A stretch of 64,000 nt of DNA from assembly GCA_044229975.1 (NCBI GenBank), contig JBGARZ010000011.1:64001-128000 (forward strand). The letters run 5' to 3'. Shown piece after piece: positions 49 through 3,465 of this stretch; position 1 is the stretch's first letter, and each line of letters begins with the position of its first letter. Origin of the DNA: Polyangiales bacterium. GTDB taxonomy: Bacteria > Myxococcota_A > Polyangia > Polyangiales > Ga0077539. A program made the position numbers and the translations under genes. Below the pieces are notes generated by a model that saw only the letters and a list, made by a program, of their open reading frames with translations, was not told the origin of the DNA and did no database searches.

Positions 49-118
49 CGCGTCGTCGATATCACGGCGCGAACGGCGCTCGCGATGGTCACCGCGCCCC
101 CACCCGCGGCGGTCACTA

Positions 119-1075
119 CTACCGCTTCGGCGCCACCACCTCGACGTCGCAGCCCGCCGCGCGCAGCACCGTCGCCGCCTCCTCCGCGTAGCGCTCCGAC
201 ACGTCCACCAGGAACTCCTTCGGCAGCGCCTCCAGCGTCGCCTTCGCTTCGTCCAGCCCGCACGCCATCACCTTGCGCAGCGCCTGCATCGCCGCCACGC
301 GATCGCTCCCGATGCGCCAGAGGATGAGCCGAAACACCCCCGGCGCGATCACCGGCAGCCGCAGCAGCGCAAACGGGTCTTCCACCCCGCTGGGCGTCTC
401 GGTGAGGCGCAGCGTGAGGTTCATCCCGCACGCGTCGGCAATGGCGCGCACCGCCGCAACGCCCTCCACGAGGTCGCCAAACACCACCGACAGGTGCCGC
501 TGCCCCCAGAACCCGAGGTGCCACGCGGGCTTCACCACGGGGCGATCGTCGTACTCGGGGCGCGCGATGAGCGCGTCGAGTTCGGGGCGCACCAGCGCCT
601 CGAAGGCTTCGAGCGCAGGCTCGATGCGCGGGTCGCCGTAGTTCATCCCGGCCGGGTACCAGGCGAACTCCACCGCGATCGGCTCGTGCGAGTGGTCGAG
701 CTCCACCTCCACGCGCCCTCCCTTCGCATAGAACACCTCACCAAACACCGGCGGCATCGTGATCGTGTACGGCGAGTGCACCAACACCTGCCGCCCCAGC
801 GCGACCGCCCTGGGCGCCTCCTTCGCGTACGAGGGCCACTCGTCCCCTCGCCCGTGCTTCGCCTCGCGCAGCCCGTGCTCCTTCACGAAGTCGTCGAGCG
901 GCGCGGGGCTCTCCGTCTCCCACTCGTTGGCGCGGTGCCACGCGTCGTGCCCGTCGATCACCTGCTGCAACAGGCGCGCGACCTCCCCGGCGGTGGCCTC
1001 GTCGTCGAAGCGCCCGACGATGGTGTACGCGCCGCTGTTGTTGCTCGCGAAGGCCGTGAACCATCGAATCCGCAT
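119..1075 (-). CDS. Hypothetical protein with N-terminal FASNNS motif and C-terminal ribosomal L7/L12 CTD-like domain
   Basis: Starts MRIRWFTAFASNNSG; ATG overlaps the radical SAM stop (TGATG); last ~70 aa (FRLILWRIGSDRVAAMQALRKVMACGLDEAKATLEALP...LRAAGCDVEV) align by eye with L7/L12 CTD. Confidence 0.8.
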   Translation of the reverse strand: MRIRWFTAFASNNSGAYTIVGRFDDEATAGEVARLLQQVIDGHDAWHRANEWETESPAPLDDFVKEHGLREAKHGRGDEWPSYAKEAPRAVALGRQVLVHSPYTITMPPVFGEVFYAKGGRVEVELDHSHEPIAVEFAWYPAGMNYGDPRIEPALEAFEALVRPELDALIARPEYDDRPVVKPAWHLGFWGQRHLSVVFGDLVEGVAAVRAIADACGMNLTLRLTETPSGVEDPFALLRLPVIAPGVFRLILWRIGSDRVAAMQALRKVMACGLDEAKATLEALPKEFLVDVSERYAEEAATVLRAAGCDVEVVAPKR

Positions 1076-2094
1076 CAGATCACCGCCAGTGCGTGAGGGT
1101 GTCGCTCGCCGATTCCAAAGCCCGCCGTGCGTGCACAGCCGGGCTGCTCGGCCGGGGTCGCGAGGGCGTCTCGCTCGTCGCGCCAGACGCGCAGGAGGTC
1201 GTCGGCGTCGGCCACGGGAAACGAGCGGTGATGGAAGCTGCACGGGCTCACCCGACGCTCGCTCGTCACCACCACGAACTCCCTCCCCGCCTCGCACCGC
1301 CGCGCCCCGAAGAGCTGCGGAACCGCCTCCATCCGCTCGCCCCAGCACACGTCGAGCTTCAACGTCACGCGCCCGCCGAGCGCGCGAGAGAGCATGCGCA
1401 CCCGCCCCGCGAGCTCGTCGGACTGCGCCCGCGAGAGGTGCAGCGACGGGTCGTGCCCGTTGTACGAGAGCAGCAACACGTCACGACAACCGCGGGCGTG
1501 GAGGTCGAGCACGAAGCTCTCCACCATCGCCAATCGCGCAGGGGTGACCAGCCAGTTGACGCCGAAGCGCACCCGCGCCGCGACGAGGCGCGCGAGCACG
1601 GGGCAGTGGTCGACGTCGTCGTAGACCGAGACCCGCACCTGACCGACGTACGGCGCCAGCGCGGCGACGGCGGCGTCGGTGAGGAGCGTTCCGTTGGTGG
1701 TGAAGCTCACCGCGAGCGCGGTCTCTTCGTGGAGGCGACGCACCAGCGCGGCGAAGCCCTTGAAGGCCAGCGGTTCGCCGCCGCCGAAGGCGACTTCGAG
1801 GGTTCCGCGGGCGCTCAGGTCGCGCAGGAAGGTGAACGCGTCGTCGGCGCTCCAGCCGCTCGCCGCGGACACGTCGCGCGAGCAGAACGTGCACGCCAGG
1901 TTGCACGCGTTGGTGATGGCGAACTGCACCACCCGCGGCGCGCGCATCCGCAGCCCGACGGTCTCTGGGCCGTCGCAGATGGCGGTGAGACCGGTGCGCC
2001 GATCGAAGAGCAGCAGCGCGTCGTCGAGCGCGTACCGACGCATCCCCGCGAGCGCGGACGGGACCTCGACGTCGTCTTCATTCAACCGGTCCAT
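1075..2094 (-). CDS. Radical SAM protein with short SPASM/twitch-like C-terminus
   Basis: CNLACTFC (CxxxCxxC), FGGGEPL, TTNG, C-terminal CEAG...VSPCSF...GC. Confidence 0.92.
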   Translation of the reverse strand: MDRLNEDDVEVPSALAGMRRYALDDALLLFDRRTGLTAICDGPETVGLRMRAPRVVQFAITNACNLACTFCSRDVSAASGWSADDAFTFLRDLSARGTLEVAFGGGEPLAFKGFAALVRRLHEETALAVSFTTNGTLLTDAAVAALAPYVGQVRVSVYDDVDHCPVLARLVAARVRFGVNWLVTPARLAMVESFVLDLHARGCRDVLLLSYNGHDPSLHLSRAQSDELAGRVRMLSRALGGRVTLKLDVCWGERMEAVPQLFGARRCEAGREFVVVTSERRVSPCSFHHRSFPVADADDLLRVWRDERDALATPAEQPGCARTAGFGIGERHPHALAVI

Positions 2095-2382: not shown

Positions 2383-3465
2383 TCACCAGAGCGCGTTCGC
2401 GAGCAGCCGATGGAAGTGGTGCACGCCCGTCTCCTTCGTCGGCGAGTACCGACCGCGTCGCGCGAGCATCGCCCGCATGCCCTGCTGCGAAGCGACCACC
2501 ACGGACTCGTCCTCCATCTCCACCTGATCGAGACCGCCGCCTGCGCCTTGCGCGCGCAGTGACGGGTCCCACGTCCACGCGCGGAAGAGCACCCGCGTCC
2601 GCAGCGGTCCGACCGGCTGAACCGCGTTGAGCGACAGCCCCCACGGGTAGAAGTTGAGCATCAGGTTGGGAAACACCCACGCATAGAACGCCGCCACCCG
2701 CGTCCCCTCGTCGGGGTGCCCCAGCGGGAGCGTGAAGGCGACCTCGTCGGGGCGGCGGGCGAAGGCGAGCTGGAGGGTTCCCCAGGGGGCGAGCTCGGTG
2801 CGGTAGTCGTCGTAGCCGATGGCGTCGTCGAGCGCGGGATGCACGAAGGGGATGTGCAACCCCTCCAGGTAGTTGTCGCAATAGAGCATCCAGTTGGCGT
2901 CGAACTCGTAGTCGCGATCGGTGTCCGTCGAGCGCACCAGGCGGTCGAGCGCGAGCGACCCGACGCGCGCATCGATCTGCGCGAGCACGGCCGCGAGCGG
3001 CGCCATCGGGCGCAACGAGACGAAGTCCAACGGCCCCCAACGATCGAGCGAAACAGCCGCGAGGTCATCGTCGACAGAAGGGAAGTCCGCGGCACCGACG
3101 AACTCGGGCATGGAGCGGAAGCGCCCGTCGTGGCCGAAACGACGGCCGTGGTAGCGGCAGCGCAGCGACGACGTGTTGGCCGCGCAGGTGACCACCGGGT
3201 GCCCGCGGTGGGTGCACACGTTGGACAGCGCCCGCACGACGCCACCAGTGCGAGTCATCGCGAGCGGCTCATCGAGGCAGCCGGGGAGCAGCGTGAAGGG
3301 AGCGGCGTCGCCGTCGCGGGTCACGGTGGAGGCTTCGGGACACCACTGCCAGCTCGGCGCAAACACACGCTCGCGCTGCCGGGCGAATAGCTCGGCGTCG
3401 CCATAGGCCGCCGGGGGAAGCGAGCGCGCGCGTCGAATGTCGGGGTCGATGTCGAAGGGCTCCAT
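2383..3465 (-). CDS. Rieske oxygenase alpha subunit (choline monooxygenase-like)
   Basis: Rieske CTHRG...CRYHG; catalytic NW...DNYLEGLHIPFVH; EDE near C-terminus. Confidence 0.92.
   Translation of the reverse strand: MEPFDIDPDIRRARSLPPAAYGDAELFARQRERVFAPSWQWCPEASTVTRDGDAAPFTLLPGCLDEPLAMTRTGGVVRALSNVCTHRGHPVVTCAANTSSLRCRYHGRRFGHDGRFRSMPEFVGAADFPSVDDDLAAVSLDRWGPLDFVSLRPMAPLAAVLAQIDARVGSLALDRLVRSTDTDRDYEFDANWMLYCDNYLEGLHIPFVHPALDDAIGYDDYRTELAPWGTLQLAFARRPDEVAFTLPLGHPDEGTRVAAFYAWVFPNLMLNFYPWGLSLNAVQPVGPLRTRVLFRAWTWDPSLRAQGAGGGLDQVEMEDESVVVASQQGMRAMLARRGRYSPTKETGVHHFHRLLANALW

Follow-up and report, generated by a model that had tools for sequence, protein, structure and literature searches.

What a radical SAM enzyme might do for a protein that the databases name 'ribosomal protein L7/L12' is the question raised by two genes near one end of the window, a 64,000-nucleotide stretch of DNA from a Polyangiales bacterium (contig JBGARZ010000011.1). 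Both genes lie on the minus strand. The first (2094..1075) encodes a radical SAM enzyme of 339 amino acids, and the second (1075..119) a partner of 318 amino acids that begins MRIRWFTAFASNNSG; both were assigned from open reading frames and Pfam matches, and relatives of the enzyme align from its residue 1. A TGATG stop/start overlap (1077..1073, minus strand) couples them, as the initial annotation had it, and the sequence and reading frames of the minus strand bear this out; in relatives the two genes likewise overlap or are closely spaced. The DNA common to close relatives is exactly these two genes (window 106-2079), and the source genome has one copy of each. An NCBIfam scan of enzyme and partner brought neither to the cut-off of any family. 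The neighbours here, by Pfam, are a PhoD-like phosphatase and a Rieske ring-hydroxylating oxygenase alpha subunit (2383-3465, minus strand), the latter not kept beside the pair elsewhere.

Downstream of the Rieske gene, and ending 13 bases before the enzyme start, is a 97 nt inverted repeat (2107-2379) whose arms are 97% complementary around a 79 nt spacer. At C2:10056-10285 the same genome has an 89.6% copy, contigs C4 and C39 have shorter matches, and the repeat is absent at the relatives' loci; it looks like a dispersed MITE/REP-type element outside the system, which may affect expression of the pair. A longer enzyme start that would run through this repeat (429 amino acids) was discarded because relatives start at the ATG at 2094. 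Sigma-54-like sites were found upstream at none of 54 loci and nowhere in the window.

A search of genome contigs with the enzyme gave 48 loci, comprising 32 near-full-length relatives and 16 distant ones, and a partner gene lies within about 300 bases downstream in 31 of the 32 close loci versus none of the 16 distant radical SAM loci. The partner profile in turn found 60 loci, a set that overlaps the 32, and 59 of these have a same-strand enzyme upstream, five of them as in-frame fusions. The two exceptions, an enzyme alone (L005) and a partner alone (L072), are in one genome. Among 301 evenly sampled genomes of the phylum the enzyme is present in ten; in nine of these a partner or a fusion bears the motif, and in the tenth the gene is broken. 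The 25 metagenome loci of the clade include 16 with a partner, seven on contigs too short to be scored, and two truncated enzymes that lack one; only a loose pattern match was seen in 4 of 55 distant metagenome loci. The idea that a radical SAM gene merely happens to lie beside a mis-called ribosomal-protein-like gene draws on the partner's database label, but it is refuted by the 31/32 and 59/60 counts and by the 116 motif-bearing proteins among the best 120 of 324 longer relatives described below, and its probability is negligible. Enzyme and partner are a self-contained unit, and the neighbourhood survey of homologs upholds the earlier claim of a conserved two-gene system.

No third conserved gene was found in 62 loci or among 84 flanking ORFs (ORFs of at least 90 amino acids); a 12-locus neighbour cluster that had seemed a candidate is a protein kinase family. 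The unit is patchily spread, being present in 5 of 8 genomes of the genus and in 9 of 24 family genomes. At L139, L184 and L186 the enzyme gene is truncated or broken and no partner lies in its vicinity, and two tandem partner genes follow one enzyme at L090 (5040, 6025) and L173 (about 5010, 5850).

The enzyme scores 49.8 bits against Pfam Radical_SAM (cut-off 29.5). It has the CX3CX2C cluster motif (C64, C68 and C71; 1882..1905, minus strand), invariant in 49/49 aligned relatives, and a GGGEP form of the GGE motif at residues 104-108, which places it in the radical SAM superfamily. Four C-terminal cysteines, C250, C267, C285 and C320 (1135..1347, minus strand), are invariant in the same 49 relatives and in 110/110 fusions, and from the alignment they probably bind a single twitch-type auxiliary Fe-S cluster. 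SPASM domains have seven or eight C-terminal cysteines, and there is no SPASM Pfam match at E 0.1, so of the original 'twitch/SPASM' description the SPASM half falls away while the twitch half stands on the four-cysteine set and the likeness to SkfB; the enzyme is thus predicted to be a twitch type with one auxiliary cluster, not a two-cluster SPASM enzyme. Residues ~19-41 (1972..2040, minus strand; LLLFDRRTG) form, according to the alignment and the model of a fusion, an RRE-like N-terminal sheet of three strands that has no RRE helices and that aligns with the N-terminal regions of SuiB and SkfB. The nearest solved folds to the enzyme half of the fusion model are SuiB (Z 21.7, rmsd 3.2, 290 residues aligned) and SkfB (Z 21.2), whose alignments start at the model's first residue, followed by PqqE (20.2), MoaA (18.8), anSME (17.9) and viperins (17.7). 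The enzyme is no viperin by NCBIfam NF038283 (41.6 bits versus 180 required), and PADLOC gave only viperin-level matches for it and no match for the partner.

The partner model has a mean pLDDT of 91. Its residues 1-11 are disordered (pLDDT <50) and are followed by two beta-alpha-beta-beta-alpha-beta domains, predicted to be ferredoxin-like (residues 16-129, 689..1030, and residues 131-237, 365..685, both minus strand), and then by a C-terminal domain (residues 245-314, 134..343, minus strand). The second of the two was defined from the model and a fold search, and the middle region of the protein resembles generic ferredoxin/ACT-like folds (Z <=8.4) and no specific family. The C-terminal domain matches Pfam Ribosomal_L12 (residues 248-313, E 1.2e-9) and superimposes on the L7/L12 structure 8yeq_A with Z 12.8 (rmsd 1.9, 70 residues aligned), compared with Z 10.3 for ClpS. 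Tested as a whole-length bL12, the partner scores 31.4 bits against TIGR00855, where 84.4 are required, and only its C-terminal half matches. An ESM Atlas search with the partner gave no usable match, the best E of its profile against PDB sequences was only 0.68, and none of 57 pattern matches in viral contigs is a relative by the partner profile.

At the junction between the disordered residues and the first domain is the motif F9-A-S-N-N-S14-G15 (1031..1051, minus strand), in which, from conservation, Ser14 (codon 1034-1036) is the likely target residue. N12, N13, S14 and G15 are present in 104/104 free partners. The motif served as the search pattern for the 60-locus set, which is therefore uninformative on its variation; when the motif was omitted from the query, 19 proteins were recovered, of which 18 carry it and the other is an N-terminally cut fragment. 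In 110 aligned fusions the equivalent of Ser14 is the sole invariant partner residue, with position 11 being G in 64, S in 35 and A in 11, position 12 N in 109 and S in one, position 13 N in 102 and H in eight, and position 15 G in 94. The SNNS conservation first proposed thus holds for the free partners, but only its last serine is invariant in the wider family. Gly15 was dropped as a glycyl-radical site since Ser, Thr, Val or Ala occupies this position in 16/110 fusions. Triceptide maturases use a conserved aromatic-x-x motif with a cross-linkable third residue, and an F9-x-S11 cyclophane was likewise dropped, as position 11 is Gly in 64 of the fusions and the aromatic at position 9 is replaced by Arg in L178 and L183.

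The second conserved element of the partner is His128-x-His130 (686..694, minus strand), a possible metal site, with His128 kept in 101/104 and His130 in 102/104 free partners, and His-x-His in 85/110 fusions. In a ferredoxin-like topology the start of the first strand lies beside the end of the fourth, which would put Ser14 next to this pair of histidines. A change of the enzyme's GGGEP to GQGEP accompanies NNS-to-NHS in 8/8 cases versus 0/102 others, probably within one lineage; mutual information across the whole alignment of the 110 fusions gave noise-level values and invariant-column artefacts.

The natural fusions came from a search for longer enzyme relatives that gave 324 proteins, the best 120 of which were examined. 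The strict motif pattern is present in 116 and the remaining four match the partner profile in that segment; the 110-fusion alignment holds 95 of the 116, which were new, and 15 found earlier, the 21 left out being mostly near-copies. Counted from the last cluster cysteine, the serine comes 24 to 94 residues later (median 26). The motif, N-terminal in free partners as had been annotated, is thus internal in fusions, so a free N-terminus is not needed. A model of fusion P0171 (pTM 0.66) has three N-terminal strands and then the barrel; the partner's first strand is ordered in it (block pLDDT 86) and the N-N-S residues are below 50, and at these values the strand that is ordered may be pairing with the sheet of the partner itself. 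The lone-partner and fusion models also differ in protein and in alignment depth. One tree suggests that the two-gene form derived from a fusion by fission and another does not.

The closest published counterparts of the pair are Avap1 (radical SAM) and Avap2 (DUF6375, PF19902), accessory proteins of KpAvs2 whose roles are left open in the available part of the report (PMC11564622). According to that text Avap1 is required against phage T2 and not against SECphi18, and Avap2 supports SECphi18 defence and binds KpAvs2 without Avap1 (PMC11564622), from which it follows that an unmodified partner can work. The present enzyme is homologous to Avap1 by profile comparison with Avap1-like enzymes (272 columns, 28% identity, probability 99.85), which includes the N-terminal FDRxTG sheet; Avap1-like enzymes have this sheet too. 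The partner's relation to Avap2 is weaker: its first domain is collinear with DUF6375 over 121 columns (probability 41, E 2.7e-4), the serine of the DUF6375 heads (GSEHS) is in register, and there, as in the partner, a His follows the last strand. PF19902 matches 13 of 33 partner relatives below the cut-off (best E 0.0029) and does not match the window protein. All 17 DUF6375 loci fetched have a radical SAM gene upstream, and the gene downstream of DUF6375 is Avs2 in both loci tested. The source of one locus, L066, is Syntrophobacterales Delta_02, which is named in Fig. 1B of the same report (PMC11564622).

The two systems are thus alike in their coupled enzyme and partner genes and homologous enzymes, and they differ in the head of the partner (SNNSG here, SEHS in Avap2), in the second domain and often an L12-like domain of the present partner, and in the four C-terminal cysteines that the present enzyme keeps, Avap1-like enzymes having no equivalents of C285 and C320. 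Avs2 adjoins no ASNNSG locus that was examined, and the Avs2 model PDLC02164 is unmatched in the source genome (93% complete). In trees with few outgroups the motif-linked enzymes form one branch in two runs (support 95 and 84) and are unresolved in a third; a single motif-linked clade is not rejected by the AU test (p 0.58). The pair appears, on these comparisons, to be a distant stand-alone relative of Avap1/Avap2 that belongs to no curated family, and in this sense it is an undescribed system as the initial annotation supposed, with the reservation that the related Avap1/Avap2 are published (PMC11564622). We note that an Avap2-like gene with a GSGHS or GSAHS head lies upstream of its radical SAM gene at L128 (4606-5870), L188, L190, L192 and L193, and that the next gene at L128 is a large helicase/restriction-like ORF instead of Avs2.

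The reading that we favour, with a probability of about 0.55, is that the enzyme binds the first strand of the partner and modifies Ser14 beside the His-x-His, the partner being its substrate. The RRE-like sheet of the enzyme would grip that strand, hydrogen would be abstracted at Ser14 of the N-N-S loop, and the modified serine would arm the partner, at a site predicted to lie next to His128-x-His130. The C-terminal domain, whether L7/L12-like, BRCT, beta-propeller, some other repeat or absent, would be a swappable docking part. The partner is taken as substrate, and Ser14 as the site, because the enzyme has the build of a peptide maturase and the serine is kept amid variation, and also because the tether in fusions is about 26 residues long and two partners can share one enzyme. 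Against it, an enzyme that is fused to its partner would act on itself just a single time, and about one in four fusions lacks His-x-His.

Frequent fusion is in fact typical of subunits, and a possible but clearly less probable arrangement is that the partner is a second subunit whose first strand completes the RRE sheet and whose N-N-S loop caps the active site, the target being a third molecule (a metabolite, a nucleotide, RNA, or a protein that the C-terminal domain brings in). Ligand binding is common among tandem ferredoxin/ACT-like folds, and the ACT domains of SerB2 (1u8s) are among the partner's fold matches; viperins and MoaA, which act on nucleotides, are close folds of the enzyme (Z 17-19), and an invariant serine suits a catalytic or binding role equally well. 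This arrangement is made less probable by the partner bodies, which vary (one, two or more domains, and an unrelated body in phages) while the head is kept, by the tandem partners, by the lack of any conserved third gene or pathway, and by the available text of PMC11564622, in which no viperin-type nucleotides were found for Avap1.

Rather improbable, in our judgement, is a third arrangement in which the radical step is a switch: cleavage or epimerisation of the backbone in the N-N-S loop would release or reshape the partner, or in fusions cut it off the enzyme. Both models show a flexible loop, fusions have it where enzyme and partner meet, redox-neutral chemistry would explain the members without the full auxiliary cluster, and Avap1 matters for T2 and not for SECphi18 (PMC11564622, available part) as a tuning step might. 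Yet the four cysteines are invariant in the present branch, the conserved His-x-His near the loop suggests a site being built, and in the phage fusions the head comes first in the protein, so that cutting there would take off no more than about 15 residues.

The phage proteins just mentioned (L129, L130) were recovered with the enzyme profile and have a FATNSSS head, FATNSSS[ST]HSIV being in register with FASNNSGSYTIV; kinship with the 'TNSS' heads that the initial annotation had brought up is thereby supported. Their enzymes are related to the present one, but the head is fused N-terminal to the enzyme, the body is without similarity to the partner, and the C-terminal cysteines are variable, with none in some. 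In a distant gut radical SAM family (L205, L206, L208 and L218, near 5010) the enzyme gene is followed by a gene with an LLTNSSVV segment.

Among peptide maturases SuiB, SkfB (twitch) and PqqE are the best folds for the enzyme half, N-terminal region included, and the cysteine set is like the single twitch set of SkfB. The present enzyme differs in having three RRE strands only and then the barrel, where a full RRE adds three helices, and in its presumed substrate, a folded protein of 240-320 amino acids that is often fused; no short precursor, protease or transporter is conserved at the 62 loci or among the 84 flanking ORFs (ORFs of at least 90 amino acids). The modification motif of sulfatases is (C/S)xPxR, which SNNSG does not contain, and the partner is ferredoxin-like, not a sulfatase. 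AtsB oxidises a Ser to formylglycine by radical SAM chemistry (PMC10114670), and AtsB/anSME resemble the present enzyme in fold (Z 17.9) and in that their target, like the presumed one here, is a Ser early in a folded protein whose gene is nearby (PMC10114670), with the difference that anSME has two auxiliary clusters and the present enzyme a predicted one. By this analogy the single likeliest product in the four-cysteine branch would be C-alpha-formylglycine at Ser14 (-2 Da), a choice that we regard as tentative, and the next likeliest would be dehydroalanine or a cross-link (-18 or -2 Da). The Avap1-like and phage enzymes without the full cysteine set argue against one cluster-dependent oxidation across the family and for redox-neutral options there. 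The only paper found on Avap/DUF6375 is PMC11564622, and none was found on the SNNSG or TNSSS motifs or the mechanism, in a search that left subscription papers largely outside.

The L7/L12-like end of the partner is real, as annotated, but it is optional: 37/62 partners have the domain and 25/62 do not. A BRCT variant, with an SCNNSS or SSNNSS head followed by BRCT, is found at L135 (2496-3950) and in P0210 and P0214, the last two with a beta-propeller as well. Since the domain is optional and elsewhere replaced by others, it cannot be the core function, and we give very little weight to the proposal that the core job of the pair is to act on translation through binding of EF-G/EF-Tu-type GTPases by this domain. 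In its favour the domain is nearer L7/L12 than ClpS, and basic residues are kept (R259 in 32/40, K/R264 in 36/40, R267 in 36/40 and K/R278 in 33/40) at positions that we take to match the L7/L12 factor-binding face. In 4/60 loci and at L171 the pair also follows immediately after an RNA-repair gene, rtcB or rtcA. Two of the five rtc-linked partners are nevertheless among those without the domain, BRCT or beta-propeller domains substitute elsewhere, the rtc-linked loci represent at most two lineages, and the source genome encodes, in addition to an ordinary L7/L12-type ORF (on C27), three more L12-like domains. These are in short non-ribosomal ORFs on C32 (near 715187), C36 (near 78198) and C34 (near 70511). 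A translation role may still hold for domain-bearing members without being the core of the system.

The rtcB genes upstream of the enzyme are at L094 (615-2892, with rtcA), L110 (3758-4996), L115 (1114-2484), L119 (3789-5036) and L171 (371-1570), and beside L094 and L119 is a divergent gene that is presumably rtcR. The rtc neighbours and the basic face are hints of translation or RNA damage in some members only; the window locus has neither Avs2 nor rtcB beside it. The patchy distribution, the variability of sites, the exchangeable ends and the link to Avs2 together point to stress or conflict, such as phage defence or RNA damage, as the likely setting. A radical SAM effector, which may or may not belong to the present family, and L12/ClpS domains are mentioned for conflict systems (PMC7159879).

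If Ser14 is indeed modified, a wider and more speculative view, which we put forward with some diffidence, is that the pair is one form of a widespread arming module, found in myxobacteria, NLR-type immune operons and large phages, in which one loop serine would become a protein-derived reactive group next to a metal site of histidines, carried by a ferredoxin-like scaffold, and the variable ends would aim the armed protein, the L7/L12 mimic at translation factors. Avap1 and Avap2, whose roles the available part of the KpAvs2 paper leaves open (PMC11564622), would thereby gain a concrete and testable job, and they are linked with an undescribed family in which enzyme and partner occur as pairs or fusions. 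The stand-alone pair, or a natural fusion of 530 amino acids, offers a minimal system for the chemistry, with two genes and one candidate residue, and conversion of the serine to a reactive group, if true, would mean a new protein modification made by radical chemistry, beyond those of sulfatases and short peptides.
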